Sequence record: PZ445418.1
DNA: 43,104 nt
Direction: 5' to 3' (one strand)
DNA from: a phage
Shown in pieces: positions 11,225 to 43,104 of the stretch. Made by a program: the position numbers and the translations under genes. The notes beneath the pieces are model-generated. The model was not told the DNA's origin. It searched no databases and saw only the letters and a program-made list of their open reading frames with translations. Each line of letters starts with the position of its first letter. Position 1 is the first letter of the stretch.

Positions 11225-13867
11225 ATGGCAGATCAGGCAGCGGGCATCACGCTCAAGGCGGACGTCGCGCAAATTAAAACGGCTAATACTGTGCTGGATA
11301 CATTTGCGCAGAAATCCGAGAACACAGAACAGAAAGTAAAGAAATTAAACGACACACTCGGCAAGTCGAAGAAGGTTACTAGCGACGCCGCGGGCGGAAT
11401 GGGGAAGTTAGCGACTGAATCGCAGCGTGCCGCCGATGGCATGACTAAACAGGAGCGACTCGCCAACCGGCTAGGCATGTCGACCAAGAACCTGGGATTC
11501 GCATCGCGGAACGCCGCATTCCAGTTACAGGATATCGCGGTAACGCTTGAAATGGGTATGCCGGTGCATCGAGTCATGCTTCAGCAGCTACCACAGCTTA
11601 CTGGGGCGTTTGGCGGGTTGGGGAATACGCTGCGTTATGTCGTCGGCACCCTCGGCCCGTTAGGGATCGGCATCGCTGCATTAACGGCAACGATGGGCGT
11701 TGGCGTGTCGATTATGTCACGAGCAGAGAACCAGGTCGCAGCGCTTAATAAGACGCTGGCGCTGTCGGGTAATATCTCCGGCCTCACCGCTAACCAGATC
11801 CTGGTGCTATCAGAGAACGCCGAGCGGATGGGCGGATCATTCCGCAAGACGCGTGACACAATTCAGTCACTGGCGGCGGCGGGTGTGAAAGCGGGTGCGG
11901 ACTTCGGCGGGTTAGCAAAGGTGGTTAATGACTTTGCAAAGACGTCGGGCCAACCTATTGAGGACGTTGTCGCGTCGGTGGCGAAGCTGTCAACCGATCC
12001 GGTAGGCGGCTTGCGCGCACTGGCGGATAAGTATCACGTCGTAAACGAAGCGCAGATCCAGCAGGTGCAGTCGCTTGTGGATATGGGTCGCGAGACAGAC
12101 GCAGTTGCGTTGGCTAACAAAACCGCCGCCGCGTCGTTTACCACTATGACCAACGATATCAAGGCGAACATGGGCACGCTTGAGCGGTCTATGAACGTCG
12201 TCACATCGGCAGCTAAATCGATGTGGGACGCTATCCTGGATGTGGGCCGCGCGCAGTCCTCGAATGAGTCAGAGATGAAAGCGCGTGAGTCCTTGCAGCG
12301 CATGACCACGGCTTACTATGCCGAGATGAGAGCGGTAAACGCTGCCGGCGGGGTGATGACCGAAGCGCAGAAAGCGCGTATTAACATGCTTTACAGCGAA
12401 CTGGTCGCCCAGGAAAAGGTGGTTGCGTCGCTTACCATGCGCAACCGTGCCGAGCGAGACAACGCCAGCGCCGCTGACGAAGCAGCAAAGGCGAACGAGG
12501 AGGCAAACCGCACCGCCCGCGACCGCGCCGCGTTTGAGAAGGAGTACGCAACCAACTCGAAGCGGCGAGCCAACGAGATCGCCCGCCTCAATTTGCTGAA
12601 TAAGCGCGGTGTTATTAACGAGAAAGAACTAGCCGAGGCGGTGAAGCAGGTCAACGAGCGCTACAAAGACCCCGCACCGAAGAAAGCGGCGGCAGTTCGA
12701 GTCGATGCCGGGCTGAAAATGCTGGAAGTCGCGCGAAGCGAATTAGCCCAGCTTCGTGAGTCTGGAAAGCAGATCGAAGCCAACGCATCGACGCAGACCC
12801 GCACGCAACGCGCGCAAGCGGCCCTAAACAAGCTGATCGCAGATAATGAGCAGTTAATCGCAGCAAGCAAGGAGCGCACACTAACGGCAGCAGAAAAGCA
12901 GCAAATGGCGGAGTTCGAGGCGGTTAAATCTGTACGCGAGCAGATCGTCGAAGAAGCCAAATTGCTGGACGCGAAAGAGAAGCAGATCAAGGCACATGCC
13001 CAGGTCGAGGCATTCATCAAGAACCAGAACGCCGAGCTAAAAGCCACCGCGGCGGGCTATGCGCTTTCCACTCGCGAAGCGGCTAACCTGCGCGAAGAAT
13101 TGCAGCTAATTGACCGCCTTCAGCGTGTAGGTGCTAACGATACTGAGATAGACAAGGCGGTGTCTAAGCTGCGTGAAGTTCAGGAAGCGCAGACCGGAGC
13201 TAACGCCTCATTATGGGATGGATTTAGTCGCGGGCTTCGCGATAGTGTGGATGAAATGGGTAACGGCTATACGCAGATGTCGTCACTCACAAAATTCACG
13301 TTCGGCGCTATGCAGGACACGATGAACGAGTTTTTCGAGACTGGCAAGCTGAACGCAAAGGATATGGTTAAATCCATCCTGAGCGAACTAATCAAGCTGG
13401 CTACCTCGCAGGCTTTCAAGTCGATCGTTAGCGCTTTTGGTGGCGACGGCGGCAAAAACGGATTGTTCGGCGCTATCTTCTCTGGCCTCACCAAGAATGC
13501 GGACGGCGGAGCGTACGCAGGAGGCAATCTCGCGGCCTATTCAGGGAAAGTGGTAAGTCAGCCTACCTTTTTCAGTTATGGCGTCCAGGCGTTCGCTAAT
13601 GGCGCAGGATTGATGGGCGAGGCTGGTCCTGAGGCCATCATGCCACTGAAGCGCGGGCCGGACGGGAAACTGGGCGTTGCCGCGTCTGGCGCAGGCGGGG
13701 GTATGGTCGTGACGACTAACGTTTACACGGGGGCCGGTAAAACGGATACCAGTGTCAGCGGGCCGGACCCCCGTACCGCGCAGGCGTTCGGCAAGCAGAT
13801 CACCGAGGCGGTGAAGGCCGAGATCGTGAAAGCGACGAAACCGGGTGGTGTACTTTACAAACGATGA
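11225..13867 (+). CDS. tail tape measure protein
   Basis: 880 aa, helical N-terminal two-thirds, Gly-rich C-terminus, between GT chaperone and gpM-like gene. Confidence 0.85.
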   Translation: MADQAAGITLKADVAQIKTANTVLDTFAQKSENTEQKVKKLNDTLGKSKKVTSDAAGGMGKLATESQRAADGMTKQERLANRLGMSTKNLGFASRNAAFQLQDIAVTLEMGMPVHRVMLQQLPQLTGAFGGLGNTLRYVVGTLGPLGIGIAALTATMGVGVSIMSRAENQVAALNKTLALSGNISGLTANQILVLSENAERMGGSFRKTRDTIQSLAAAGVKAGADFGGLAKVVNDFAKTSGQPIEDVVASVAKLSTDPVGGLRALADKYHVVNEAQIQQVQSLVDMGRETDAVALANKTAAASFTTMTNDIKANMGTLERSMNVVTSAAKSMWDAILDVGRAQSSNESEMKARESLQRMTTAYYAEMRAVNAAGGVMTEAQKARINMLYSELVAQEKVVASLTMRNRAERDNASAADEAAKANEEANRTARDRAAFEKEYATNSKRRANEIARLNLLNKRGVINEKELAEAVKQVNERYKDPAPKKAAAVRVDAGLKMLEVARSELAQLRESGKQIEANASTQTRTQRAQAALNKLIADNEQLIAASKERTLTAAEKQQMAEFEAVKSVREQIVEEAKLLDAKEKQIKAHAQVEAFIKNQNAELKATAAGYALSTREAANLREELQLIDRLQRVGANDTEIDKAVSKLREVQEAQTGANASLWDGFSRGLRDSVDEMGNGYTQMSSLTKFTFGAMQDTMNEFFETGKLNAKDMVKSILSELIKLATSQAFKSIVSAFGGDGGKNGLFGAIFSGLTKNADGGAYAGGNLAAYSGKVVSQPTFFSYGVQAFANGAGLMGEAGPEAIMPLKRGPDGKLGVAASGAGGGMVVTTNVYTGAGKTDTSVSGPDPRTAQAFGKQITEAVKAEIVKATKPGGVLYKR

Positions 13868-13902
13868 TAAAATGGCCCTCACATCCATCGTGGGGGCTTT
13901 TT

Positions 13903-14502
13903 ATGTCACAAGGTACAATCACCTTAACTAAGGGCAGTAAGACCGTTACGGGCGCGGGGACGGCGTTCCTTAGCGAGATCGGGAAGGTACTCGTATTCGC
14001 CCGCATCGACGGCAACGACTACACCGGAAAAATTGCGGCGTTCAACTCGAACACGGTCATTACCCTGAAAGATAACTGGGCCGGCCCAACGAAAGCCGGT
14101 GCGGTATATGAGCTAATAGAAGCGCACGACCCGCGGTCAAATGAATGGCCCTATTACTGGCACATGCAATTGCAAGGCGGCGGAGACGTGCAGTTGGCTT
14201 TCCGGTCCGAGGAATTGCAATTCGGTAACGGTTACGGTCAGAACATCGCGGACGGCCCGAACGCCGAGACAAAACAGTTCCCCGTGCAATTCATTGGACT
14301 GACTACGGACAAGTGGTGCGACCCTAAACTGGTTTACAACTTCCTTCGCGGGCACTTCATCAAACCGTTTGTTGTCACCGCGCCGGATGGCGAAACAGGT
14401 TTGTTCGTGGTCGAGCGTTCGAGCTTGTCGTACACTGACAATGGGCACTACACGGCAACGGTGTCCGCCACCCTTAAGACAGCTATTGGATTCGTAAGAT
14501 GA
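13903..14502 (+). CDS. minor tail protein (gpM-like) with N-terminal extension
   Basis: C-terminal half resembles lambda gpM (W-x-Q...QFGNGYGQ vs RFGDGYSQ); N-terminal 90 aa shares motif with fibre 21385. Confidence 0.6.
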   Translation: MSQGTITLTKGSKTVTGAGTAFLSEIGKVLVFARIDGNDYTGKIAAFNSNTVITLKDNWAGPTKAGAVYELIEAHDPRSNEWPYYWHMQLQGGGDVQLAFRSEELQFGNGYGQNIADGPNAETKQFPVQFIGLTTDKWCDPKLVYNFLRGHFIKPFVVTAPDGETGLFVVERSSLSYTDNGHYTATVSATLKTAIGFVR

Positions 14503-25785: not shown

Positions 25786-25790
25786 CCAAT

Positions 25791-28667: not shown

Positions 28668-28707
28668 CTCTAAAATCCTCGATATGGCTAACCGGCACAC
28701 TATACCG

Positions 28708-29174: not shown

Positions 29175-29178
29175 AATC

Positions 29179-31470: not shown

Positions 31471-31637
31471 TGCTTAATCCTCACTACGGCGTCAGCGCTG
31501 CCGATCATGGAGAAGATACCGTCGGAAAGGGTTATCTCCTCGCCGTTGTTGCGAATCTCGGCAACGGTGAAATACTCGCCCAGCAATTTAGACCATACTC
31601 GCATTCCGACTTTTACTTCGCTGGCTTTAATGCGCAT
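31467..31637 (-). CDS. small hypothetical protein
   Basis: 56 aa (MRIKASEVKVGMRV...), stop overlaps polymerase ATG (ATGA). Confidence 0.4.
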   Translation of the reverse strand: MRIKASEVKVGMRVWSKLLGEYFTVAEIRNNGEEITLSDGIFSMIGSADAVVRIKQ

Positions 31638-31695
31638 TTTTCATTGTCCTATTAAGAAGCCCGCATTAAGCGGGCTTGAATAGTGGGCTTTGCCC

Positions 31696-32472
31696 TTAAC
31701 GGCGGCGACGTTTGCGTGGTGCTTCGTCTTCGTCGTCGTCCTCATCATCTTCGTCATCGCGTGGCTTACGACGTTTACGAGGTTTCTCGTCTTCGTCATC
31801 GTCATCGCGGCGCTTGGACTTTTTGGACTTGCGCGACTTGTCATCTTCGTCATCGTCATCACGACGTTTTGACTTTTTGGACTTGCGCGGTGCTTCGTCT
31901 TCGTCGTTGTCCAGGTCTTCATCGGAGCAAGAAGACCCGCCACCGCCGAAGGCTTCGCCGTCGTCACGGAAGCGTAAACCCAGCAGTCCAGCACCGAGTC
32001 CCTTGCCGTTGGTATTGTTCCACGCCCAAATATCCAGGGACACATTGCAATAACAACCGGAGTAGATCTCCTGGCCTTCAATTTCGTCGCCTTCTACGGT
32101 CAGACCCTGTTCGGTCTGCTTCTCGCCGAGTGACGTTTGAATGTTTGGCTGCTTGAACGATTTGGCATTGATGTACAACATGCCTTCGAATTCTTCGGTT
32201 ACTTCGTCGCGCTCGTCGCCGTCGCGAACTGCGCATTCCTTAGAATCCTGGGCGTAGTGGCGGTCCATCCACTTATCGGCGTTCTTCTCGGATTTCAGCT
32301 TGTCGGTGAGCACTGCGCGCGCTGCCGCTTCCACTTTGTCCACCTGCGGATCTTCTTTATCAAGAAGAATCACTGCACGGTATGCCGGTTTTTGTCCATC
32401 CTGTTTAGGGGTATCGCGCTCCCAAATTTTAAGGAAACATACGCGCACATTTTTCAGGTTGACTTTAGCCAT
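31696..32472 (-). CDS. ssDNA-binding-like protein (DUF2815-like) with charged tandem-repeat tail
   Basis: ATG at 32472 (MAKVNLKNVRV) with AGGA RBS; FGGGG near C-terminus; tail of repeated DDDDED/KSKKSKRR units. Confidence 0.5.
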   Translation of the reverse strand: MAKVNLKNVRVCFLKIWERDTPKQDGQKPAYRAVILLDKEDPQVDKVEAAARAVLTDKLKSEKNADKWMDRHYAQDSKECAVRDGDERDEVTEEFEGMLYINAKSFKQPNIQTSLGEKQTEQGLTVEGDEIEGQEIYSGCYCNVSLDIWAWNNTNGKGLGAGLLGLRFRDDGEAFGGGGSSCSDEDLDNDEDEAPRKSKKSKRRDDDDEDDKSRKSKKSKRRDDDDEDEKPRKRRKPRDDEDDEDDDEDEAPRKRRRR

Positions 32473-32562
32473 TTTCCAATTCCTCATTTTCACATGTATC
32501 GGGGTTATTGTGAGCCACCCCGTTCGGCTTGGTTGCTAATCTACTTGGTTGCGCCTAAGCGG

Positions 32563-32805
32563 TCAAGCATTTTCATTAAAAAGATTTCGGGTCACGTAGT
32601 TGGCGGCGTTCTCGACCCAGCTTAGCGGCGGGCGTTCGCCATGTCTCGCGATCCACGCCACGGCAATGGTGCTGTATCCATCGTCCAGCCAGCTGGTCGG
32701 ATGGCGAATCATCCAGGCCACCATTAACACGCCTTGCACGCAATGCAGGATAAATCCAAGCGCGCCGAGCAAAAACATCAATAAGATTGCGAATACTTTA
32801 TTCAT
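32563..32805 (-). CDS. small membrane protein
   Basis: 80 aa with two hydrophobic helices. Confidence 0.35.
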   Translation of the reverse strand: MNKVFAILLMFLLGALGFILHCVQGVLMVAWMIRHPTSWLDDGYSTIAVAWIARHGERPPLSWVENAANYVTRNLFNENA

Positions 32806-34228
32806 TGCTTAAGTCCTCGTCAGTAGCTTCCGACCACGCAGGGCGAGGGTCGTCGATTGGTGCTAACACCGGTTTGGCTGGTGCGCGCGTGATTTTATCA
32901 CACAGCTTCGCCCACACTTTCGGCTTTTCGTCCTTCAATACCTTCTCGGCATCCGTAGGGCTGAGCAATGTTTCTTTGTACATCACATCGCGCTTAATCC
33001 GGGCCTTCGTGAATATTTCAATCACTTCGCTCTCGTCCGCCCACTTCCGGATCCCTTCCTTACCGGCAACCATCTTGAGGCCCAGCGATTCGCCAGCCCC
33101 CGCCATTACCGCTTTGAATACCGCGGACTCGATAGCTTTGATGTGCTGGCGCATTGCGTCCAGGCCTTCATAAGCCTTGCGCAGTTCCGCAGCGCTCATA
33201 GCACCGGGGGCCGCTTCTTTCTTACCACGCTTCGCACGTCGTGCCGCCTTCCTGGCTTCGCGGGCCATATTGCGATCGTGAGTGGCGCATTCTTCCTCGG
33301 TCGCCACGCTCACGTCGTCGCCCAGGTCTTCGTCTGTTGCCGTTGGGGGTGTCATCGTGTCGATTGCGGCCTTAGCGCGGGCACTACACTGATCCGCAAA
33401 TCGGCACCACTGGCACGCATCAACGCTGGGACGGAAGTCGGCACGGGTAAGTCCCTTCTTGCCTCGGGAATACGCCTCCAGTGCGGCAATAGCGCGCTTG
33501 GATGCAAACTTCGAGAATATCTCCAGCGCTTCTACCGAAATATCCCACTCCGACGCCCCGCCGCAATACGGCTGGAAGATAACCAGGCGAACGGTCGTAA
33601 TGTCGTACATAGTTTGCAGCTTGCGCAGCAGTCCGAGCGCGTACAACATAAGCTGTTTGTTCTCTTTCGCCTCGACCTTATGACGCCCGGTCTTCAGGTC
33701 GCCAACAATCAGCATGTACGTTCCATCGGTCTTTTTCATGACCATGACCATATCGGCAGTACCGAACGTTTTAATCCGGTTGCCGTCGATCTCGTAGCCT
33801 GGGTGAAGGACGCGGGTCAGATCGGCGCGCATCTCAAGCTGGACAAACTCCGCCACTTCGAGGAGCGGTCGCCAGTGGTCAATGTACGCGTCGCACTGTT
33901 TCACCATGTCGTCGTTGACCAGTACGCCGCCTTTCGGTGCTTTCGGGTGTGCCTTTACTGGCCCCCTGCCTTCGTTCTCGACGTAGCACCCTTTATATGT
34001 CTCCGCGGTAATCAGCTTCTCACCGGCGATAATGCGGTTTAGCACCACTTCAGATACGGTGTGCATACTCGTACCGTTAATCGCGGCTTGCCCGGATTCG
34101 TTCGGGATATCTTTTTCCACCACCAGGGCGGCAGGACACCCCATCCATTTTTTAGCACCGGATGGCCCAAGTAATGAGTGTTCTGTATTGCTACCGGATT
34201 GCGTTTTACGTTTTGGTTTAATCGCCAT
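32798..34228 (-). CDS. Cas4-like PD-(D/E)xK exonuclease (DUF2800-like)
   Basis: N-terminal S-L-L-G-P-S-G-A-K-K-W-M-G-C-P, nuclease core D-M-V-M..V-G-D-L-K, C-terminal C-Q-W-C-R-F-A-D-Q-C cysteine cluster. Confidence 0.65.
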   Translation of the reverse strand: MAIKPKRKTQSGSNTEHSLLGPSGAKKWMGCPAALVVEKDIPNESGQAAINGTSMHTVSEVVLNRIIAGEKLITAETYKGCYVENEGRGPVKAHPKAPKGGVLVNDDMVKQCDAYIDHWRPLLEVAEFVQLEMRADLTRVLHPGYEIDGNRIKTFGTADMVMVMKKTDGTYMLIVGDLKTGRHKVEAKENKQLMLYALGLLRKLQTMYDITTVRLVIFQPYCGGASEWDISVEALEIFSKFASKRAIAALEAYSRGKKGLTRADFRPSVDACQWCRFADQCSARAKAAIDTMTPPTATDEDLGDDVSVATEEECATHDRNMAREARKAARRAKRGKKEAAPGAMSAAELRKAYEGLDAMRQHIKAIESAVFKAVMAGAGESLGLKMVAGKEGIRKWADESEVIEIFTKARIKRDVMYKETLLSPTDAEKVLKDEKPKVWAKLCDKITRAPAKPVLAPIDDPRPAWSEATDEDLSNE

Positions 34229-34407
34229 TATTCCACCCGTGTAAACTGGACAATTACATATTTCACATTTGCCAGGCCCGCTTTTTCGACTCGGCGCTTA
34301 ACTTCATTTTGCGCGTCCACAAAGCAATTGCTTGCGTTGGTGTTTTCAACAATAAAAGAAGTGTGGTCGTTTAATTCGTGGCATGTTGCCAGCACGAAGA
34401 ATTTCAT
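34228..34407 (-). CDS. small hypothetical protein
   Basis: 59 aa (MKFFVLATCHEL...) not in ORF track; GGGAGA RBS; TAATG coupling at both ends. Confidence 0.35.
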   Translation of the reverse strand: MKFFVLATCHELNDHTSFIVENTNASNCFVDAQNEVKRRVEKAGLANVKYVIVQFTRVE

Positions 34408-34658
34408 TATTTCGTCTCCCAGCGGTCAATTGTTTTTGCTTCGGATGCAACTGCGAAGCGAACATATTCCAGATTGGAGTCTGCCCAAATATAAAAGTCG
34501 GGGTTAGTAAAGGTGGTGCGCTTAATTTGCGCAGGAGTATTGCGGCGTTTATCAATTACGGCAACGCGTGACTGAAAGCTGCCGATGCGTTCGAATAGCC
34601 AATAGTACGGGCGCTGGTCGCGGGAATCCACCGCCTCGATTAGCGTGAAGCGTGCCAT
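34407..34658 (-). CDS. hypothetical protein
   Basis: 83-aa track ORF in the coupled early operon. Confidence 0.4.
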   Translation of the reverse strand: MARFTLIEAVDSRDQRPYYWLFERIGSFQSRVAVIDKRRNTPAQIKRTTFTNPDFYIWADSNLEYVRFAVASEAKTIDRWETK

Positions 34659-34706
34659 TGTCTCTTCCTCTAAAAATAGGCCCGCAGATTAGCGGGCCGG
34701 ATAATA

Positions 34707-35135
34707 TTAGTCTTCCAGTTCGAAATAGGTTTCGACGATTTCTTTCAGATCTTTGTGGAAGTCTTCGACGTCGTCATCTTCCAGCTTGGCGATTGATTTG
34801 ATCTCAAACGCTTCCAGCAGGTCGTCAAATTCGTCGTTCGCGTCGTCGTCGTCACCACCAGCGATAATAGCGGCGTACTGTTTGATCTCATCGCGCATCT
34901 CTGCCAGCGGGTCGGCATCTTTCTTACCTTTTCCTTTCGCCGGAGCTTTTTTACCCTTCGCTGGTTTTTCGTCTTCGGCTTCATCGTCGTCATCTTCTAC
35001 GACTTCTTTTTTGGCCTTAGACGGCTTCTTGTCTTCCTGCTTACCAACGGCAGCGCCAACGGTTTCATAATGCTTAGCGATGGTTTCCAGTGCTACTACG
35101 CCGCGAGTAATCAGGTTTACGATTTGCTCAAACAT
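34707..35135 (-). CDS. acidic/Lys-rich early protein, first gene of leftward operon
   Basis: 143 aa from ATG at 35135 with GGAG RBS; runs DDDDEAEDE, GGDDDDANDEFDD, LEDDDVED plus KPAKGKKAPAKGKGKK; track ORF extends upstream to 35363. Confidence 0.5.
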   Translation of the reverse strand: MFEQIVNLITRGVVALETIAKHYETVGAAVGKQEDKKPSKAKKEVVEDDDDEAEDEKPAKGKKAPAKGKGKKDADPLAEMRDEIKQYAAIIAGGDDDDANDEFDDLLEAFEIKSIAKLEDDDVEDFHKDLKEIVETYFELED

Positions 35136-35331
35136 GGTATATCTCCAATTGGTTAAGTTTAGGTGTCGACCATTAACCTCGTCGGTGGCCTTAACATATT
35201 GCCTGGTTACGCGTTCTCCCGTTCGGGTAGTGGACCAGGTTATATAATCACGGTTGGGAATCCTGACACTTCGATCCGGCCCCTGCGTCGCCCCTCTCCA
35301 GTTTGCGTCCTGCATCCTGTCGACGGAGTGC

Positions 35332-35360
35332 ATATTAGATTGGTTGCAGAAGGGAGTCAA
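35332..35360 (-). promoter_or_regulatory. sigma70-like promoter TTGACT-17-TAATAT (leftward early promoter)
   Basis: good hexamers, 17-bp spacer containing TGCAACCAAT (35339-35348 on plus strand). Confidence 0.5.
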
Positions 35361-35370
35361 CAACTAATTT

Positions 35371-35406
35371 AAAAAAAAAGCGCCGAGGCAAAATGCAACG
35401 GCGCTA
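35371..35406 (-). terminator. intrinsic terminator on minus strand
   Basis: AGCGCCG / CGGCGCT stem followed on minus strand by nine U. Confidence 0.6.
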
Positions 35407-35428
35407 ACCAATAAGAGACAATGAGACG
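35371..35428 (-). ncRNA. candidate small RNA (about 58 nt)
   Basis: minus-strand promoter-like TTGAAA-17-AATAAT (35435-35463) followed within about 60 nt by the terminator above; no ORF. Confidence 0.25.
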
Positions 35429-35476
35429 GGATTTATTATTACACGCGTGCGCGCCCGTTTCAATATTCCAAAGGAG

Positions 35477-35505
35477 TTGACACCCTGCGGTTTTAGGTGT
35501 AGTTT
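35477..35505 (+). promoter_or_regulatory. sigma70-like promoter TTGACA-17-TAGTTT
   Basis: perfect -35, weak -10, upstream of HTH gene. Confidence 0.4.
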
Positions 35506-35536
35506 CATTGGTCATTAACCAACCGGAGACAGAACA

Positions 35537-35866
35537 ATGAACGTAAACGACGCAATCGAAATGTTAACCAAGACTGTTTGCAGTGAGACAAGCCGGTCCT
35601 GGGCGTATACCGATGCCGTGGGGGCGGTGTTATTCGAGGTCGAACGTCTGCGCAGTGTAGAAAAAGAATTACGCGCCAGGCTGGAATTGCTCAACGGTAC
35701 GGCGGCGAGCAAGCTGCAAAAGCACAATGAGGAAATGGAAGAATACAAAAAGCAGGTTATCCGTTTGCGCGCCGAGGGAAAGTCATGGGCGATGATCGCG
35801 GAGTTGACAGGAATTAATCAGAGCACCGTGCGATCCTGGGTACGCAATAACAAAACTTCGAAGTAA
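35537..35866 (+). CDS. helix-turn-helix DNA-binding protein
   Basis: 109 aa, C-terminal GKSWAMIAELTGINQSTVRSWVRN HTH-like segment; GGAGA RBS. Confidence 0.55.
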   Translation: MNVNDAIEMLTKTVCSETSRSWAYTDAVGAVLFEVERLRSVEKELRARLELLNGTAASKLQKHNEEMEEYKKQVIRLRAEGKSWAMIAELTGINQSTVRSWVRNNKTSK

Positions 35867-35876
35867 GGCAACGGCA

Positions 35877-38141
35877 ATGAGCTTAATTAAATTCGCTGTA
35901 ACAAGACCCGCTAAAAAAGGCGAAAAAGCCAGGGCGGAAAACTTCCAGATGACGACCGATGAGTTTTTCGAATTTATCAAAGATGCGAAAGAAATCTCCT
36001 CGGTGCATATCAACAAGACCGAGGATAAAGCCGAGTATGCGCGCCGCAAGCGTAAGGCCGACGGCATCGTGGCGTATACCAGTGATGGATTGCGTCGCAA
36101 GACCAGTGCGGTGGACCGCTCGATCCTGTTCTTCGATATTGACCGTACCGACACCCGCACCCTACGCCGCTGCCGTAAGGCGTTCATTGACGCGGGTATG
36201 GAACACGTATTTCACACCACAACCGGCGACCGTCACCCACTGAAAGGCGGTATGCGTTGTGCCCGTTTCCTGGTGCTCACCGATAAGCCTGTACCGGCTG
36301 AAGACCTGGGCCGCGTCCAGTATGCACTACTACACCAACTGGGCCTGTCAGATGTGGACTTCGACGATTGCACGAAAGACACTAACCGCCTAATGTACCT
36401 GCCACATCAGCAGTCTGTCGTTAAGTGTCACTACGGCAAACGTGCCCGCGTCCGTCGTCTGCTTCGCCTGGCTGATAAGCTGGGAGTGGAAAAAGAGGAA
36501 GTACGCCGCGAACTAACCCAGGGCGATGACGGCGTGGCAGACGGTATTCTGGATTGGTGCTTCCAGGCGGGATTCGAACCGCTGTCGTCCGGTCGTGGCT
36601 ATGAAGTGCCGTGCCCGAACGAACACCTGCACAGCGGCGAAGGGTCCACCGCTATTATGGTTAAGGATGGCGAGATCCGTTTCAAGTGTATGCACACCGG
36701 AAACGAGTGCTGTTCCGAACTGAACAGACACCAGCACCTGGCGCTACGTCTTATAGGGATCCCGGACCACCTGAACGTCGAACCGCACAACATGTCACGT
36801 AAGCAAATCGCCGCCATCCTCCCTGGACTGGACGACGAGGAAGTCGAATCGTGCTATGAACATATTGTTGATGCAGTTGGCGACGGCGAAGAATACGGCG
36901 TGTGCACCGATGCGGATCTGGATAACGAGCCGGTCGCACTCTTCAGTAAGCACGACCCGATCATAGAAGGCCTGGTAAACTTCAAATCGACCTGGTACAT
37001 GGCTGGCGAGTCGAACATCGGTAAATCGTTCTACGTGCTGGGGCAAATGGGCGCGGTTGCCGCGGGGATTCCGTTCGGTGGCGCGAAGGTAGTCCAGTCT
37101 CATTGCTTCTATTTCGACGCGGAAGGTGGTGAAGCCTCCAACCAGCGTAAAGAAGCATTGCAGATTAAATACGAGCACGACCTGGACAAGCTGCACATTA
37201 TCGATCTGCAATCACGCGGCTGGGATATCACCAGCAAATCCGGCTTGCGTGAAGTTATCAGCTTCATCAACCGCACCGCTAACGGCGAGCCGGTTGGCCT
37301 GGTGGCGTTCGACTCACTCAACCAGACTGTTGCGCTGCGGTCCGCCGATGCAAAACCGTTCGACGAGAATAACGCCAGCGATATGGGTGAAGTGGTCAAA
37401 GCGCTGAAGGCCATTGCGGAAAATACAGGCGGCAGTGCGGGCGTCATCCACCACCCAGCGAAGGGTGCAAACGGCAGCAGATCTCCCCGTGGGTCCGGCG
37501 CGCTTCATGGTGCTGTCGATTCTGCGTTCTTCCTGGAACAGCCGGACGACAACCAGCCAGGCCAACTCAACCTGTACCATGAAAAGGCACGTAACGGCAT
37601 CAAGCAAGCGCCGCGCGGCTTCGTCCTGCTTAAGTGCAAGGTTAAGGTGGATCTCCGCAAGTCCGAGGCGTTCGAAGCCCACCAGTCCACCAGCACCGGG
37701 CCGGACTTCGGTGATGTGGTTGCCGGATGGGACGTCAAGCCAATTGCCTCCACGCCACGCGACGAGACTCTCTACCTCGTACCGGTCGCCCTGGCGCCGT
37801 TCGCTATCGAACAGGCAAAGGCAGCGGGCAAAGCAGCAGTTAAGGAAGAGAACACCGCCGGACCGCGCAACGAAAAAGAAAAGGTACTTTACGCGGCGCT
37901 GGAAAAACTGATGGAAGACAACCCGGACCATACCGGATTCAGTAAATCGGCAATTGTCCGCCAGGCGGGATTGGCAAAAGGTGGCACATCGACGAAGGCA
38001 ATCGACGATATGGTCGAGCGCGGAGTGCTGGGTTTTTACACCGATCCGCACACTGGGGCCATCTATGGGTCGTCGAATATCGTCATTAAAACGAATATAC
38101 CCATCACGCTTTCGGCGACCGACGAAGATTTAAAAGATTAA
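35877..38141 (+). CDS. primase / replicative ATPase fusion protein
   Basis: 754 aa; Cys/His cluster CPNEHLH...CMHTGNEC; Walker A GESNIGKS and Walker B-like LVAFDSLN in C-terminal half. Confidence 0.7.
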   Translation: MSLIKFAVTRPAKKGEKARAENFQMTTDEFFEFIKDAKEISSVHINKTEDKAEYARRKRKADGIVAYTSDGLRRKTSAVDRSILFFDIDRTDTRTLRRCRKAFIDAGMEHVFHTTTGDRHPLKGGMRCARFLVLTDKPVPAEDLGRVQYALLHQLGLSDVDFDDCTKDTNRLMYLPHQQSVVKCHYGKRARVRRLLRLADKLGVEKEEVRRELTQGDDGVADGILDWCFQAGFEPLSSGRGYEVPCPNEHLHSGEGSTAIMVKDGEIRFKCMHTGNECCSELNRHQHLALRLIGIPDHLNVEPHNMSRKQIAAILPGLDDEEVESCYEHIVDAVGDGEEYGVCTDADLDNEPVALFSKHDPIIEGLVNFKSTWYMAGESNIGKSFYVLGQMGAVAAGIPFGGAKVVQSHCFYFDAEGGEASNQRKEALQIKYEHDLDKLHIIDLQSRGWDITSKSGLREVISFINRTANGEPVGLVAFDSLNQTVALRSADAKPFDENNASDMGEVVKALKAIAENTGGSAGVIHHPAKGANGSRSPRGSGALHGAVDSAFFLEQPDDNQPGQLNLYHEKARNGIKQAPRGFVLLKCKVKVDLRKSEAFEAHQSTSTGPDFGDVVAGWDVKPIASTPRDETLYLVPVALAPFAIEQAKAAGKAAVKEENTAGPRNEKEKVLYAALEKLMEDNPDHTGFSKSAIVRQAGLAKGGTSTKAIDDMVERGVLGFYTDPHTGAIYGSSNIVIKTNIPITLSATDEDLKD

Positions 38142-38260
38142 ATTTTGCGCGCATTGGTTGCCGATATGGGAATTCCCATATCGCTAAAAGGTTAAATTTT
38201 GCGCGCATTGGTTGCCATTTTGAGTGTTTTTATTTGGTCGTATTGGTTGCCGTGTAGTGT
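38138..38260. repeat. direct repeats flanking a perfect 20-bp palindrome
   Basis: TTAAATTTTGCGCGCATTGGTTGCC at 38138-38162 and 38192-38216; palindrome GATATGGGAATTCCCATATC at 38163-38182; third ATTGGTTGCC at 38242-38251. Confidence 0.75.
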
Positions 38261-38268
38261 AAATATAG

Positions 38269-38463
38269 TGAATAGTTATGCAGTTTTATTGCATAAAGTA
38301 AGCGGGACAGAAAGCGGGACAAACAAGGGGCGGGACAAAGCGGGACAGCACCCCCGTCCCGCCCCGGATGGCGCGGCTTCCAGAGGAGCGGGACAGCGGG
38401 ACAGCACCCCAGTCTTTCAGACTAGACGGGGGTCATCGGCCCCCCTCGTCTGAGACTGAATAA
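38269..38463. repeat. iteron element B (second copy of element A)
   Basis: box TGAATAGTTATGCAGTTTTATTGCATAAA, six GCGGGACA(G/A) units, terminal hairpin differing from copy A at only 2 positions. Confidence 0.8.
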
Positions 38464-38619
38464 AATCCGGGGGATTGCAAAATACACGGCAGCATGTTGC
38501 GAAGTGCGGTCGCGGATGAACTAGGCAACCAATGCGAGATGCATTATGCGGAGTGAAAAACACAGTTTGCAGTTGCAGCAGATAGCGATCAACTTTTTCA
38601 TGCGCATGTTTGATATTGG

Positions 38620-38648
38620 TTGCATCCGCCCTAGCACCCTGCTATATT
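38620..38648 (+). promoter_or_regulatory. sigma70-like promoter TTGCAT-17-TATATT
   Basis: flanked by ATTGGTTGCA at 38615-38624 and 38645-38654; leader matches the one upstream of 4453..5217. Confidence 0.55.
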
Positions 38649-38676
38649 GGTTGCACACCAACAAGAGGACTGAACA

Positions 38677-38982
38677 ATGAAAGCGATTATCTGGAATTAC
38701 TCCCTGGCCGTGGCAAAGCTGGACGAAGCGAAGGCACTAAACAGCAACGTAGATCAGGCGCTTCAGGTTGCGATACTGGCGCATCAATCCCTTCGCAGCG
38801 CGCTCTATGGCATGGGCGCCAGCATGGACGAACTGAGGCCGTTGCGTATGGCAATCCACGAATACGCGCGGGCATTCTCCCGTGAGCGCCTGGCGTATCG
38901 CTTCGGTATTGGCGATAAGGCAGTGACAAACGTCGCCAGGATTAAAGCCCAGCGCGAGCTATTCGCCCAGCTTGCGAAATAA
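38677..38982 (+). CDS. hypothetical protein
   Basis: 101 aa helical protein, RBS GAGGA. Confidence 0.5.
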   Translation: MKAIIWNYSLAVAKLDEAKALNSNVDQALQVAILAHQSLRSALYGMGASMDELRPLRMAIHEYARAFSRERLAYRFGIGDKAVTNVARIKAQRELFAQLAK

Positions 38983-38991
38983 GGGGCCAAA

Positions 38992-39261
38992 ATGAGACGT
39001 AGACGAGCTAAACAGCTTTCATGGCATATTCCACTGCATTGCATACGAATATGGGCTGAGAATGCGGTTGAGGGCGATTCTGTGTTCTGGTGCTATCGCG
39101 ATGATGTGAAGCCACTGACGCAGACTCGCTACTTGCACCAGTTTGCAGCACAACACGATTTCAGGGTGCGGACTTCCTTGCAACCAATGGGCATTCGTAT
39201 TACATTACGCCGGAAGCCCGCCGTTGAGCGGGTAGGCAAACACTGGAGGCTGAGCAAATGA
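38992..39261 (+). CDS. hypothetical protein
   Basis: 89 aa, RBS AAGGGG. Confidence 0.45.
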   Translation: MRRRRAKQLSWHIPLHCIRIWAENAVEGDSVFWCYRDDVKPLTQTRYLHQFAAQHDFRVRTSLQPMGIRITLRRKPAVERVGKHWRLSK

Positions 39262-39410
39262 CACCAATGCAAAGGGCACTAATGGCGGGATTCTCGCAGA
39301 AGTTTATTTCAGTAGACGCCTGCATAGCTGATTATGAGATGGACGGCATCGCTACGGTATGCGATGGCGACTATAAGACTGTTGACGAGATCGAGGAGAC
39401 TGAGCAATGA
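39258..39410 (+). CDS. small acidic hypothetical protein
   Basis: 50 aa, ATGA overlaps at both ends; not in ORF track. Confidence 0.35.
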   Translation: MTPMQRALMAGFSQKFISVDACIADYEMDGIATVCDGDYKTVDEIEETEQ

Positions 39411-39979
39411 AATTACTATTCCGCCGTAAGTGCGATGGCTGCATCCTGAAGCCGATCCAGACCCTGGATTCCTACGTCCGCTTGCAAAACGCGGCAGGCA
39501 ATCGGGTGTGGTGGGCGAAGAAAGACAAGCTGACGGCAAACTTTGACGTACTCACCCACGATATCGAGCGCGGCGATGTGCTGCGGGATATTCGCGACGG
39601 GCAGCTATGGATCGTGGAATACGTTGGTTTTAATAGCCTTCGTATGCAGACGCGCAAGGGTGGCGTTGCTGGTAACCTGGTTAAGAGCGTGGCGTACTTC
39701 GGACTAATCAACTACGAGCGAGTGGGCCGCAAATACAGCCTTCGCAAACACCAGCCGCATGAGCGCGTCGAGTTCCGCAAGTCGCAGCCCGCGTATGCCA
39801 CCTACGACGCGAGCAAAGTGATGGAGCCGATCCGTCAGGCGGCGCATGAGATAGTCAATCGCGTTGATGCCGTGACGAATGCACAGCGCCATGCGCAGGA
39901 ATACGGCGTGGGATTCATCCGTGTCGAACGAGACGGCAGCATGAACGCCATCGACCCGCGCTCGGTGATTCTGAAATGA
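39407..39979 (+). CDS. hypothetical protein
   Basis: 190 aa, translationally coupled. Confidence 0.5.
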   Translation: MKLLFRRKCDGCILKPIQTLDSYVRLQNAAGNRVWWAKKDKLTANFDVLTHDIERGDVLRDIRDGQLWIVEYVGFNSLRMQTRKGGVAGNLVKSVAYFGLINYERVGRKYSLRKHQPHERVEFRKSQPAYATYDASKVMEPIRQAAHEIVNRVDAVTNAQRHAQEYGVGFIRVERDGSMNAIDPRSVILK

Positions 39980-40116
39980 GTGCGACGATCCGTGATATGC
40001 TTCAGCACAACCGCTTTGAGATAGGCGGTCGGGTATTTCGCAATTACTTCGTGGCGCGTGCATGGGCGCGCCATATTGGAAAACCGGAAGGGGCAATACG
40101 ATGCTACACGATTTGA
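39976..40116 (+). CDS. small hypothetical protein
   Basis: 46 aa, ATGA overlap with previous gene; not in ORF track. Confidence 0.3.
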   Translation: MSATIRDMLQHNRFEIGGRVFRNYFVARAWARHIGKPEGAIRCYTI

Positions 40117-40388
40117 TATATTGGTTTGGTTTGATCTGCGGGCTGTGCCTGCTTACCGCGGTGCTGGTGGGCGTCCTGATGTTCGTAGTGTGGCCCGCGG
40201 TGGAAGCCGCCAGCATTACCCGCATGACGTTCGAGATATACAAGCGCCGTGGAATCAAGGAGCACCCGACCAGGTTGCGCATGTGGTGGCTGTGGTATCG
40301 CGATATGATAGGCGGGCGAACATTCGAAGCCGTCCGGTCTAGTGGATGGGAGTGGAAAGGCGTCGGCAAGTGGTCCATTTTCGATTAA
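40101..40388 (+). CDS. membrane protein (one TM helix)
   Basis: from ATG at 40101; hydrophobic YWFGLICGLCLLTAVLVGVLMFVVW then basic/Trp-rich tail. Confidence 0.45.
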   Translation: MLHDLIYWFGLICGLCLLTAVLVGVLMFVVWPAVEAASITRMTFEIYKRRGIKEHPTRLRMWWLWYRDMIGGRTFEAVRSSGWEWKGVGKWSIFD

Positions 40389-40405
40389 TTATGCAAGCGT
40401 GATAT

Positions 40406-40440
40406 AGTCCCAGTGAGATAAAACTTACTGGGACTTTTTT
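40406..40440 (+). terminator. intrinsic terminator abutting holin start
   Basis: AGTCCCAGT / ACTGGGACT 9-bp stem, 12-nt loop, TTTTTT ending at 40440; ATG at 40441. Confidence 0.65.
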
Positions 40441-40731
40441 ATGGATAAGCTAAACGAGTGGTTATTCGCCCTTGCGTGTCTTGCTGGTGGCTTCGTCGGC
40501 GCACGCATTCATGGCGAGGCAACGAAAGGGCCGTTGAACTTCGTTTTATATGTCGTGGTTGGCTTCCTGTGTGCCATATTTGGTGCGCCAGCTATTGCCG
40601 AGTGGTCTGGTTTGTCTGGTGAGCGCACTGTTGCCGGTTTGGGCTTCGTAACTGCCATCTTCTGGATGCCAATAGCTGACCGGATCCGGGAGACAATTGC
40701 GTCGCTACACCTTCCGGGGGGCGCAAAATGA
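40441..40731 (+). CDS. holin
   Basis: 96 aa with about three hydrophobic segments, immediately upstream of second membrane protein and endolysin. Confidence 0.6.
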   Translation: MDKLNEWLFALACLAGGFVGARIHGEATKGPLNFVLYVVVGFLCAIFGAPAIAEWSGLSGERTVAGLGFVTAIFWMPIADRIRETIASLHLPGGAK

Positions 40732-40973
40732 TTATCACCGTCCTGTTGTTTGTTATCATAGGGGCTTCGTCCCTGTTTAACGTGTATGCGCCGTCCGTCC
40801 AGGATGGCATTTTAGGCCGGGTGTTATATCTGCTAACAGCGATGATCTGCGTTATCGGATTGTTGCAAACAGGAGACGTATCTGACACCACCTGGACCGC
40901 GTTAATCTGGCTGTTTGCATTGCGCACCCTGCGTAATGCTGTTTTGAATGGGGTAAAACATGCGATTCAGTGA
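40728..40973 (+). CDS. second holin/antiholin-like membrane protein
   Basis: 81 aa, two hydrophobic helices, ATGA coupling. Confidence 0.5.
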   Translation: MIITVLLFVIIGASSLFNVYAPSVQDGILGRVLYLLTAMICVIGLLQTGDVSDTTWTALIWLFALRTLRNAVLNGVKHAIQ

Positions 40974-41451
40974 TAACGGTCTACGATTTACGGCAGCATG
41001 GGAGACGTTCAGCCCAGTGCCGTATTTCGCGACTAAGAAAGAGCAGGCCCGCGGCCTGTACACCTGGGGTTATGGTCATACCGGCACTAACCCGCCTCGA
41101 AGCATTACCCGCGCGGAAGCGCTGGAGCTACTTAAGCACGATGTGGCGTATGCTGAGGACTGGGTGAACAAATACGCACATCCGAGCATTAACCAGGCGC
41201 AATTCGACGCGCTGGTGGACCTGGTAATCAATGCTGGTCCGGGTCCGATCGTACCGGATGACGTCGCGAATGATTTCGATGATGCGGTGCGACTGGGCGA
41301 CTGGGCGAAGGTACGGGCTACTCTGCCGCAGTTCCGCAAGCAAGGTGGGGAAGTGCTGAAGGGGTTAGTCCGTCGAGCAATCGGCAGGCAGGCGCTATTC
41401 GATGGTAAGCAGTGGGACGTTGCCGAGAAGATCGGACGTAACGCAGCATAA
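40960..41451 (+). CDS. endolysin, GH24 lysozyme-like
   Basis: GYGHTG and N-Q-A-Q-F-D-A-L-V-D-L-V-I-N resemble P22 gp19 / T4 lysozyme family. Confidence 0.7.
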   Translation: MRFSDNGLRFTAAWETFSPVPYFATKKEQARGLYTWGYGHTGTNPPRSITRAEALELLKHDVAYAEDWVNKYAHPSINQAQFDALVDLVINAGPGPIVPDDVANDFDDAVRLGDWAKVRATLPQFRKQGGEVLKGLVRRAIGRQALFDGKQWDVAEKIGRNAA

Positions 41452-41467
41452 TACGGGGTAACACAGT

Positions 41468-41881
41468 ATGTTAAAAAGTATTCTTGATCATAACGCCGAC
41501 GCGCTCGCCGCGCTGGCTAAAACCGAAGACCCTGGCGCACGCGCTATCATCGCGGACACTATCAGCCATGCAGGCGTCTTTGACGCGAAGCTGCCTAGCG
41601 TGCCGGAGAGTAAGCCGGTGGCAAGTGCGACCATAACCATCACCCCAGTGTCCGCCGCAGTCGGTGCGAAGGCCGCCGCTTCTGTTGCCGTCCAGCCATC
41701 CGACGCAACTAACAAGGCTGGGAAGTGGGTGTCCGCAAACCCTGACTGCGCGGCAATCGACCAGACTACCGGCGAAATCACAGCGAAATCGGAGGGTGGC
41801 GTCCACATCTTTTGGGTGGCATCCGATGGAGGCGGGGCGATGGCGTCCGCCATCTTCACCGTAACGGGAGCAGGAGCATAA
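41468..41881 (+). CDS. Ig-like (Big_2-type) domain protein
   Basis: C-terminal 80 aa fit Big_2 pattern (ITITP...ATNK...W-S-NP...A-ID...G-ITAK..G...I....DGG). Confidence 0.5.
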   Translation: MLKSILDHNADALAALAKTEDPGARAIIADTISHAGVFDAKLPSVPESKPVASATITITPVSAAVGAKAAASVAVQPSDATNKAGKWVSANPDCAAIDQTTGEITAKSEGGVHIFWVASDGGGAMASAIFTVTGAGA

Positions 41882-41887
41882 AACCAC

Positions 41888-41915
41888 AAGCCCGGTTAAT
41901 TCCGGGCTTTTTATT
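41888..41915 (+). terminator. intrinsic terminator
   Basis: AAGCCCGG-ttaatt-CCGGGCTT followed by TTTTATT. Confidence 0.7.
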
Positions 41916-41917
41916 GC

Positions 41918-41947
41918 TTGACTTGCAACCAACTATCAGACCATACT
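41918..41947 (+). promoter_or_regulatory. sigma70-like promoter TTGACT-18-CATACT
   Basis: TGCAACCAA directly after -35; followed by strong RBS GAGAGGAG. Confidence 0.35.
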
Positions 41948-41977
41948 GCTACCGATCAACGAGAGGAGTATTACACT

Positions 41978-42064
41978 ATGGCACGTAATGATATTTGGGT
42001 GATGGCAATATGGTCCACCGCAGCATTCATTGGTATGGTTATTTGTGAGGTGATAAATGGCTGA
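41978..42064 (+). CDS. small hydrophobic peptide
   Basis: 28 aa (MARNDIWVMAIWSTAAFIGMVICEVING) with strong RBS. Confidence 0.3.
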   Translation: MARNDIWVMAIWSTAAFIGMVICEVING

Positions 42065-42227
42065 GTTAGTCCGCCTTATGGCGCGCGATGAACACGTAAA
42101 AGTCACATTCTACGATAGCGGGAAGTGCTGCCGGGTTGAGTGCTGTGACCGCGGCGTTAAAATGCAATTCGAAGGATACACGGACACGATTGTTGATATC
42201 CTACGCGACCTGGGAACGTTGAAATGA
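42057..42227 (+). CDS. small Cys-rich hypothetical protein
   Basis: 56 aa, RBS GAGGTGA, ATGA coupling to next gene. Confidence 0.4.
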   Translation: MAELVRLMARDEHVKVTFYDSGKCCRVECCDRGVKMQFEGYTDTIVDILRDLGTLK

Positions 42228-42436
42228 TTAGACAAGTATTCATGAGCACGCAGGCCACCCGCCTGAAAGAGCTACGCAAACAACTCGAAGGCTTGCGCCG
42301 ATTCGAACGAACGGCAGCGGCAATAGGCATGTCTATCAGTGAGCGGATCGAGATACTATCTCAAATACGCTACACAGAAGGCGCAATAAGCGAAGTAGAA
42401 AGCATGTTAACCCGATACTACGGTCGCCCCGTTTAA
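42224..42436 (+). CDS. hypothetical protein
   Basis: 70-aa helical track ORF. Confidence 0.45.
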   Translation: MIRQVFMSTQATRLKELRKQLEGLRRFERTAAAIGMSISERIEILSQIRYTEGAISEVESMLTRYYGRPV

Positions 42437-42443
42437 CCCTCCT

Positions 42444-42469
42444 AGCCCGCCGATTTGGTGGGCTTTTTT
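42444..42469 (+). terminator. intrinsic terminator
   Basis: AGCCCGCC-gattt-GGTGGGCT followed by TTTTT. Confidence 0.7.
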
Positions 42470-42483
42470 GTGCCTGTTATAAT
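42455..42483 (+). promoter_or_regulatory. extended -10 promoter (TGtTATAAT) for packaging operon
   Basis: perfect TATAAT at 42478-42483 with TG at 42475-42476; weak -35 TTGGTG inside terminator stem. Confidence 0.5.
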
Positions 42484-42553
42484 CCCAATTAGATGGCAGG
42501 GCCGTCTCCTATGTTGCCGATGGTCGGCGCATATGCACAAAAGGGCTTATATC

Positions 42554-43104
42554 ATGGCAGAAATCAAAGTTAAGGGCCGACGCGCCAAACTGGACGGACG
42601 AGTGGCAGTAACCCCGCGCCGTAAACCTGGCGAGCAAACAGAACACACCAATCTCGGGCCGGAGATCGAATACGGCAAGCGCCGTAGAGGCGGCAAATGT
42701 GGACGTCCTACCGACTACCGTACCGTGTATTGTGACCAGCTTCGCCGCTATTTCGCCGATGCCGTAGCCTGGCAAATCAACTACTCCGACAAAGGTGCTG
42801 CGCAGGTAATCCCTCGCAACAAGATGCCGACTCTAGGTCGCTTTGCCGCAGATATTGGTGTAGGCGTCGCCTGCCTGTACCGCTGGGCGCGCGCACATGA
42901 GGAGTTCGCCGAGGCGATGGCGGACGCTATGGAGTTGCAGAAAACGTTCCTGATGGAAGCTGGCGGCGTGACCATCGCGGCGGGCTTCGCTACCTTCCTG
43001 CTTAAAGCCAACCACGGCGTCCGGGACGATGTACCGCTGGATGACGACGAAGATGATAACGGCGACGTCGTTGTGGAGCCTACTGGCAAAGGTCAGGGTG
43101 AGTA
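42554..43104 (+). CDS. terS: terminase small subunit (stop codon completed by position 1)
   Basis: HTH-like PTLGRFAADIGVGVACLYRWA, acidic C-terminus, directly precedes TerL; RBS AAAGGG. Confidence 0.65.
   Translation, partial: MAEIKVKGRRAKLDGRVAVTPRRKPGEQTEHTNLGPEIEYGKRRRGGKCGRPTDYRTVYCDQLRRYFADAVAWQINYSDKGAAQVIPRNKMPTLGRFAADIGVGVACLYRWARAHEEFAEAMADAMELQKTFLMEAGGVTIAAGFATFLLKANHGVRDDVPLDDDEDDNGDVVVEPTGKGQGE

Follow-up and report, generated by a model that had tools for sequence, protein, structure and literature searches.

A terminator hairpin adjoining the holin start codon of a Dhillonvirus is predicted to occlude the ribosome-binding site and carries a promoter-like motif

In the 43,104-nucleotide (nt) phage sequence PZ445418.1, here called the window, the ATG of a holin gene directly adjoins an intrinsic terminator, and the hairpin of this terminator is predicted to bury the only Shine-Dalgarno (SD) sequence of the gene. 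The window is a nearly complete genome of a Dhillonvirus (HK578-like siphovirus), a phage of E. coli. Positions 40400-40443 form a compact module at the boundary where the rightward helicase/small-gene block gives way to the lysis cassette. Leaving aside the promoter discussed below, it is probable, in our judgement, that this module acts as a terminator and as a translational lock. According to our folding analysis, the hairpin probably keeps early transcripts from making holin. Since holin synthesis decides when the infected cell dies, blocking early holin bears on lysis timing and burst size. More tentatively, we propose that the productive holin mRNA could start from a promoter embedded in the same DNA. 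Controls of this kind are known in phages T4 and lambda, and the element is a compact variant of them.

The hairpin, the U-run and the holin start codon

Positions 40406-40435 read AGTCCCAGTGAG-ATAAAA-CTTACTGGGACT and begin 17 nt past the stop codon of the upstream gene. The core stem, AGTCCCAGT/ACTGGGACT, has nine Watson-Crick pairs (40406-40414 with 40427-40435), and three inner pairs (G.U, A-U and G-C) extend it to 12, six of which are G-C. With its G+C-containing stem, short loop and U-tract directly 3', the element has the sequence features of an intrinsic (Rho-independent) terminator. The hairpin alone folds at -19.3 kcal/mol; in a 101-nt context the folding z-score is -5.19, none of 200 shuffles being as stable, and a terminator scan of 30000-43104 gives this site the most stem pairs (12). 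An earlier description made from the letters of the window, the sequence-only reading, had reported a hairpin followed by six T ending at 40440, with the holin ATG at 40441. Sequence, terminator scan and folding bear out this arrangement. The six T (T40435-T40440) are present, but the first of them closes the stem, so five unpaired U lie between the helix base and the AUG. The terminator itself is not new, since an ARNOLD-predicted terminator is already annotated on the same hairpin in GenBank records MK373789 and MK373791; we came across no account of how it overlaps the ribosome-binding site. An Rfam scan of the whole window returned no family at threshold, and folding of the nascent RNA gave neither a convincing alternative antiterminator fold nor a stable competitor for the 5' arm.

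The sequence GGGAC (40430-40434) within the 3' arm comprises the only SD-like or purine-rich bases in the 20 nt before the ATG, as the sequence-only reading had stated. Its best duplex with the anti-SD sequence reaches -3.9 kcal/mol, among the weakest of 51 genes whose starts were mapped from the PTXU06 annotation onto the window. For each of these starts we calculated an opening cost, that is, the ensemble free energy needed to make positions -15 to +3 single-stranded. The holin start costs 19.0 kcal/mol, second among the 51 genes, with a median of about 5.7 kcal/mol. Thus, the claim that the ribosome-binding site is occluded in the folded RNA is upheld by the prediction, and the SD-like bases would be buried on any RNA containing both arms. 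Only one gene has a higher cost, the minor tail gene starting at 13903 (21.1 kcal/mol). The genes at 7330, 10165, 28450 and 34658 also lie behind terminators and each has a separate GGAG after the T-run; consequently, the omission of an external SD at exactly two genes looks deliberate. Translation from another start was also considered: ATG 40441 is the first start after an in-frame TGA (40414-40416), no other in-frame ATG, GTG or TTG occurs in the first 26 holin codons read, and the next Met is at about residue 75.

Expression reportedly follows the stability of the initiation region in a relation described by de Smit and van Duin. Given this relation and a barrier of 19 kcal/mol, essentially no initiation, rather than slow initiation, is predicted for an RNA carrying the lock, and essentially no holin would be made from it. 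Such a lock goes far beyond mere slowing, so that some mechanism would have to open the initiation region. This bears on the proposal that the element restrains and delays holin production as a lysis timer. The predicted occlusion and the terminator hold up, and in lambda the rate of holin expression sets lysis time (bioRxiv 10.1101/2025.05.14.654169). A barrier of 19 kcal/mol is, however, too strong for a graded timer.

The same considerations weigh on the explanation that holin mRNA arises by read-through only, with no internal promoter, so that rare opening of the hairpin and slow holin accumulation would set lysis time. We regard this as unlikely, while giving it serious weight. It takes the terminator and the SD occlusion as they are, real and conserved, and it agrees with lambda S, where a stem-loop covers a GGGGG SD and lysis time is set by how fast holin is translated. 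Internal terminators requiring read-through are present in many Dhillonvirus operons (16 ARNOLD terminators in PTXU06), and a high late genome copy number could offset a low yield. However, the opening cost stands so far above the median that effectively no initiation is predicted, while the lambda stem-loop is much weaker and tunes start-codon choice. Moreover, the essential minor tail gene at 13903 is equally locked (21 kcal/mol), so a mechanism that opens such structures must exist.

At this second site, between the tape-measure gene and the minor tail gene, TGATAAAAT abuts the stem of a hairpin GGCCCTCAC...GTGGGGGCT, which is followed by TTTT and the ATG. A GGGGG in the 3' arm is the only SD of the tail gene. 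Across 15 loci the stem is kept, with pairs that switch between wobble and Watson-Crick; some relatives have a degraded T-run (TCTTCT, TTTTCT). As the same succession of hairpin, T-run and ATG serves a tail gene, the design is not specific to lysis, a further point against the timer proposal as it was stated.

Conservation in Dhillonvirus and in the sister genus Kagunavirus

An 81-nt element containing the hairpin is at least 95% identical in 150 of the 155 phage records, against 80-95% identity over the surrounding 2.6 kb. Because the element is better conserved than its flanks, the arrangement of hairpin, T-run and ATG is not a matter of chance. Eighteen sequences (the window and 17 loci) differ at two loop positions (40418 A/C and 40420 A/G), in the length of the T-run and in one base-closing pair; the T-run has 5-7 T in all Dhillonvirus loci examined. 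In the Ioannina lineage, whose holin is about 70% identical, a C:G pair is gained by an extra C in the 5' arm together with an A to G change in the 3' arm; the N-terminus of the holin differs there and the ATG still adjoins the T-run. In Escherichia phage NHEP3 (L098, PQ511147.1 1629-1709) the loop and inner stem are reverse-complemented, GAGATAAAACTT becoming AAGTTTTATCTC with the 9-bp core unchanged, a change that amounts to a natural loop inversion at the inverted repeat.

A loop that is AUAAAA in the window and flanked by A/U might also serve as a cleavage site. In that case an endonuclease, for example RNase E acting in the A/U-rich loop, would cut the read-through RNA, the 5' arm would be lost and the holin message activated. 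Processing by RNase III activates translation of lambda N and of T7 early mRNAs, which gives the idea a precedent. Even so, we find it barely credible here: nothing in the sequence points to a processing site, the two halves would still be held together by 9-12 bp after the cut, and the loop sequence is not conserved between lineages.

In Kagunavirus, whose holin is about 45% identical, a hairpin ATCCTCCAG...CTGGAGGAT occupies the homologous position and is followed by TCATC and a TTG start. Its 3' arm contains the consensus SD GGAGGA, sequestered as in the window, and it lacks a T-run. In both genera exactly 5 nt separate the helix base from the start codon. Counted from this base, six of the nine pairs differ on both sides between the genera and all are still Watson-Crick. 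The register of the pairs was set by script from the helix base, a choice of ours justified by the identical 5-nt distance to the start codon; covariation counts from MAFFT alignments and RNAalifold were not used, because these alignments placed the two genera out of structural register. Among Kagunavirus loci the stem is extended in two (L052 and L067), an A-U pair is switched to G.U in another (L075) and a pair is broken in one contig (L116). In the Kagunavirus K1ind1 (L097) the holin initiation region is the third most occluded of 48. Upstream of the holin hairpin there is a long helicase operon in Dhillonvirus and only two small open reading frames (ORFs) in K1ind1. As the Kagunavirus hairpin buries GGAGGA without having a T-run, the feature common to both genera is SD sequestration directly before the holin start, and the U-run is specific to Dhillonvirus. 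If only the lock is true, it would still be a strong and clean case of SD sequestration at a holin gene, present in two genera with compensatory changes.

These observations also bear on a simpler explanation, by which the hairpin is a plain terminator of the upstream operon that abuts the holin gene through genome compaction, with no regulatory lock intended. The holin would then be translated without an SD, either through S1 on the U-run or because the hairpin brings GUGAU (40399-40403, complementary to 16S AUCAC) near the AUG, as in T4 gene 38. In its favour, S1 could plausibly bind a U-run that leads straight into the AUG, GUGAU is separated from the helix base by 2 nt on its 5' side, and other terminators in the genome stand 20-25 nt before the next start. 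We nevertheless consider this explanation improbable, given the separate GGAG found after the T-run of the four terminators named above. The Kagunavirus hairpin, with a consensus SD inside and no T-run, likewise argues for selected occlusion, and GUGAU is not conserved in that genus (GUGC/GUGG).

A three-codon mini-ORF, which starts 2 nt past the upstream stop and ends 3 nt ahead of the hairpin, is kept in Dhillonvirus (ATG CAG TCG TGA in WFI and Ioannina) and absent in Kagunavirus. It suggests an attenuator-like route in which ribosomes that have completed the upstream gene reinitiate on the mini-ORF and, on stalling or terminating at its UGA, melt the lowest 2-4 bp; stem melting would suppress termination and partly free the SD, so that holin synthesis would track upstream translation. 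The synonymous or conservative character of the changes (CAA to CAG, GCG to TCG) and a stop only 3 nt before the helix base speak for it. We judge it very improbable all the same. The helicase reach of the ribosome is usually +11 to +13, because of which only 2-4 of the 12 pairs would open, and opening still takes 10.7 kcal/mol in an RNA that starts at 40410. The mini-ORF lacks an SD, its absence from Kagunavirus counts against such a role, and no alternative antiterminator fold appears in the nascent RNA. At the 13903 site, the stop codon of the tape-measure gene barely reaches the stem.

The search for more distant relatives among genome contigs returned none, and metagenome and IMG/VR contigs gave the same two genera only, plus three remote matches without the arrangement. 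Pectobacterium phage Wc4-1 has no comparable hairpin, and in Pantoea phage MED16 a terminator lies about 43 nt before a holin-like gene that has a separate SD. In K1ind1, the head-morphogenesis gene (ATG 2782) stands close behind a hairpin/U-run at about 2760-2784 (…CCGAAAGGGGCUUUCUUAUAGU AUG) and has the second-highest opening cost of the 48 genes.

A candidate promoter overlapping the hairpin, and comparable known systems

The sequence-only reading held that holin mRNA would arise only by read-through. We find this doubtful, since it ignores a conserved extended -10 motif, TGaTATAGT (TGATATAGT), whose predicted RNA, starting at about 40415, cannot form the hairpin. The motif has its TG at 40400-40401 and its hexamer at 40403-40408, and it overlaps the first 3 nt of the hairpin. 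The pattern TGNTATAVT has only two matches in the 43-kb window; both are on the + strand, intergenic and next to terminators, one upstream of holin and the other (TGTTATAAT, 42475-42483) upstream of terS. On a crude sigma70 matrix the holin site is 25th of 86,116 positions (8th by its extended -10 alone) and the corresponding site of K1ind1 is 42nd of 84,492, ranks that are respectable but not compelling.

TGaTATAGT is invariant in the Dhillonvirus loci examined, and Ioannina keeps T40408 (the -7 position) although it is bulged there. Kagunavirus has TGnTATCCT at the corresponding position, from which transcription is predicted to begin just past its 5' arm. TGnTATnnT is therefore kept in both genera despite differing stems, a conservation that would go unexplained if holin were made by read-through only. 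Counting 6-8 nt past the hexamer, the predicted transcript start in the window is G40415/A40416 (range 40414-40416), directly 3' of the 9-bp arm. An RNA whose 5' end lies at 40414-40417 folds without the hairpin, at an opening cost of about 2 kcal/mol. For the promoter-derived RNA of K1ind1 the cost depends on the 3' boundary (8.8 kcal/mol with +40, free with +20 or +60), so the Kagunavirus numbers are softer than those of the window. The lysis unit is bracketed by two terminators, and the T-run and the ATG stand too close together for a promoter to fit between them.

On these grounds we tentatively prefer a model that we hold to be a little likelier to fail than to stand, in which the hairpin would terminate and translationally silence early RNA and the embedded promoter would make the productive mRNA. 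RNA polymerase coming from the early promoter region (about 35477) would mostly terminate at the holin hairpin. RNA that reads through would carry the -19 kcal/mol hairpin, leaving the holin initiation region inaccessible, from which we infer that early RNA cannot make holin. The less certain step is the next one, in which productive holin mRNA would start inside the element from an extended -10, sigma70-type promoter overlapping the 5' arm. A start near G40415/A40416 would omit the 5' arm, giving neither termination nor occlusion of the ribosome-binding site. The resulting RNA would have an A/U-rich leader of 25-26 nt, with UGGGA 7 nt from the AUG.

Several points weigh against an embedded promoter. 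The candidate has a poor -35 region (TCGATT/TTCGAT) and, at the holin site, CCC in place of a G-rich discriminator; in Kagunavirus the hexamer TATCCT is weak, ranking 120th by its extended -10 score. The invariant CGTG exceeds what an extended -10 needs; as it can also pair weakly with the AUG region in an outer helix, it may be conserved for a different reason. An unregulated sigma70 promoter at this position would not alone explain late timing. The searched literature yielded no transcript ends, reporter data or toeprints for Dhillonvirus or Kagunavirus, nor any transcription map or gene-regulation study of either genus. Finally, the motif TGNTANNNT occurs at the 5' edge of terminators at four sites in the window, and two of these, at 13865 and 20049, contain upstream stop codons, which partly explain them; the association is absent at the terminators of K1ind1 and is suggestive only.

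The preferred model would follow T4 gene e in its logic, except that the hairpin here would also act as a terminator. In T4, the initiation regions of genes e (lysozyme), soc, 49 and I-TevI are covered by an inhibitory hairpin whose 5' strand contains a late promoter (McPheeters et al. 1986; reviewed in PMC3014915). As at gene e, the SD and AUG of a lysis gene would be sequestered on long transcripts initiated upstream, a promoter-like element lies in the DNA of the 5' strand, shorter transcripts would omit the inhibitory arm, and the predicted effect is the absence of premature lysis. The differences are that the candidate here is a sigma70 extended -10 element (TATAGT with an upstream TG) and not the T4 late sequence TATAAATA read by gp55, that the hairpin is a full intrinsic terminator adjoining the AUG, and that the gene encodes a holin, not the endolysin. 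The holin element is an analogue of the T4 case, not a homologue.

For lambda S, a stem-loop at nt -21 to -7 that controls access to a GGGGG SD is cited in bioRxiv 10.1101/2025.05.14.654169. In both phages the holin start is directly preceded by a stem-loop that covers a G-run SD. The lambda structure is, however, short and weak and partitions two starts (Met1/Met3), whereas the window has a far stronger hairpin with a U-run and, in place of the dual start (holin/antiholin), a single ATG in the first 26 codons read. Nor did we detect a protein family relationship with S (no Pfam hit; here phrog_2359). Lacking a T4 late promoter, a dual start and any detected protein relationship, the holin element belongs to neither the T4 e nor the lambda S system.

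The lambda pR'-tR' region, with Q antitermination, lies ahead of the S-R-Rz late operon. It resembles the holin element in being an intrinsic terminator upstream of a lysis cassette that heads late genes, and differs in that tR' is hundreds of nt before S and clear of its ribosome-binding site. In attenuators and riboswitch expression platforms, the 3' arm of a terminator can overlap an SD, and one helix can both terminate transcription and mask a ribosome-binding site, as here. Unlike them, the holin element shows no ligand-binding or leader-peptide sensing domain and no antiterminator fold, according to the Rfam scan and folding.

Fletcher et al. (bioRxiv 10.64898/2026.08.19.745784) describe promoter-coupled terminators, in which the -10 follows the T-tract and transcription starts about 10 bp past the termination site. 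Terminator and candidate promoter DNA also overlap between tandem genes at the holin site. The holin -10-like element is, in contrast, upstream of the stem, so that transcription would begin within the hairpin, ahead of the termination site. The arrangement of Fletcher et al. is found in the window at the terS-proximal 42444-42483 and not at the holin, where coding sequence follows the T-run. At the former site TGTTATAAT is a perfect extended -10, 5 nt past the terminator and about 70 nt upstream of a terS-like ORF (ATG 42554), and its -35 (TTGGTG) lies inside the stem.

It is tempting to extend the embedded-promoter model to a 'terminate-and-restart' unit of about 45 nt, in which one helix would terminate, lock and host a promoter that starts inside the hairpin; the holin and minor-tail genes would both use it, and 10117 and 20049 may do so too. 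We hold this extension to be possible, with slightly less confidence than the model itself. Its geometry would be the reverse of the one described to date for promoter-coupled terminators. Should the embedded promoter be true, it would be a very small natural part that insulates, silences and restarts within 45 nt and is reused in one genome, a new geometry among overlapping promoters and terminators and a useful element for synthetic biology.

At the compact terminators 10117-10148 and 20049-20076, the TGNTANNNT motif ends exactly at the first base of the stem, with the junctions TGTTAATAT|GGGGCC and TGGTAGTAT|GGGGCT respectively. The TG, TA and T of the 10117 motif are kept in 15 relatives, including one (L161) whose stem differs throughout but is compensated. 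At 20049 the motif takes in the TAG with which the upstream gene ends, and at the holin the mini-ORF and the extended -10 motif share bases, the TGA of the former overlapping the TG of the latter.

There is no shared late-promoter word in the window. A candidate phage-specific promoter motif, CGTGATATAGT, gave 9 matches with at most two mismatches against 8.3 expected, no other one being informatively intergenic, and was discarded. A paper on KBNP1315 lysis was set aside as irrelevant, since it concerns an SP6-like phage.

Genome context and neighbouring features

Over the lysis region (39400-42000) the window shares about 90% identity with Escherichia phage GeorgBuechner; matches to this region occur in 151 phage records, most of them annotated as Dhillonvirus. 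Dhillonvirus and Kagunavirus are common E. coli isolates, and some of the matching isolates come from studies oriented to phage therapy. On the circular map the order is lysis cassette, terS, terL and structural genes, so the lysis cassette heads the genes for packaging and structure, an order also seen in lambda. The helicase/small-gene block would be 'early', as judged from its replication genes. Table 1 gives the coordinates.

Table 1. Features of the holin element, of related sites and of the surrounding genome (window coordinates)
Feature	Position	Strand	Basis
terL and structural genes	1-23388	+	genome map
Second hairpin/T-run/ATG junction (hairpin 13874-13898, TTTT, ATG 13903 of minor tail gene)	13865..13905	+	sequence, opening cost
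Replication genes	about 24774-35363	-	genome map
Primase/helicase and small-gene block	from promoter candidate at 35477 to 40388	+	genome map
Last gene of helicase/small-gene block, 95 amino acids (TAA stop 40386-40388)	40101..40388	+	phrog_2531 (function unknown in family); start mapped from PTXU06
Mini-ORF ATG CAA GCG TGA, three codons	40391..40402	+	read from sequence
Extended -10 promoter-like motif	40400..40408	+	motif search
Hairpin 5' arm (core 40406-40414)	40406..40417	+	sequence, terminator scan, folding
Hairpin loop ATAAAA, 6 nt	40418..40423	+	sequence
Hairpin 3' arm with GGGAC	40424..40435	+	sequence, folding
Terminator T-run, first T paired	40435..40440	+	sequence, terminator scan
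First holin-like gene, 96 amino acids	40441..40731	+	PHROGs phrog_2359 holin, E = 5e-31; holin in relatives' annotation
Second holin-like gene, 81 amino acids	40728..40973	+	phrog_2508 holin
Endolysin (Phage_lysozyme)	40960..41451	+	PF00959, E = 9e-21
Ig-like (Big_2) protein, final gene of lysis unit	41468..41881	+	PF02368
Terminator closing lysis unit	41888..41913	+	terminator scan; annotated in PTXU06 and WFI
Two small ORFs, then terminator 42444, then terS running off the window end	downstream of 41888 terminator		genome map
Terminator AGCCCGCC...GGTGGGCT with T6	42444-42469		conserved in PTXU06

The start of the endolysin gene is ambiguous. It may be ATG 40960, as in GeorgBuechner, where it overlaps the end of the second holin-like gene, or GTG 41017, as in PTXU06, which has a high opening cost (12.9 kcal/mol). 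Past the lysis unit, short ORFs occupy 41915-42436 (about 41980-42064, 42057-42227 and 42224-42436). Relatives (L001, 3527-4923) have at this place, between the lysis unit and terS, a 1143-bp ORF like Sodalis phage SO1 gp58.

The divergent control region at 35330-35510 contains the best-scoring sigma70-like sites of the window, on the - strand: TTGAAA-17-AATAAT with a TG (hexamer at 35440) and TTGACT-17-TAATAT at 35337. On the + strand, the promoter candidate TTGACA-17-TAGTTT at 35477 marks the start of the helicase block. A T9 terminator lies on the - strand at 35405-35379. Elsewhere, a 100-amino-acid ORF (20090-20392), just past the tail-fibre (J-like) gene and its terminator, has 275 relatives in IMG/VR at about 65-73% identity; as these occur in contigs of many sizes, it looks like a widely exchanged module.

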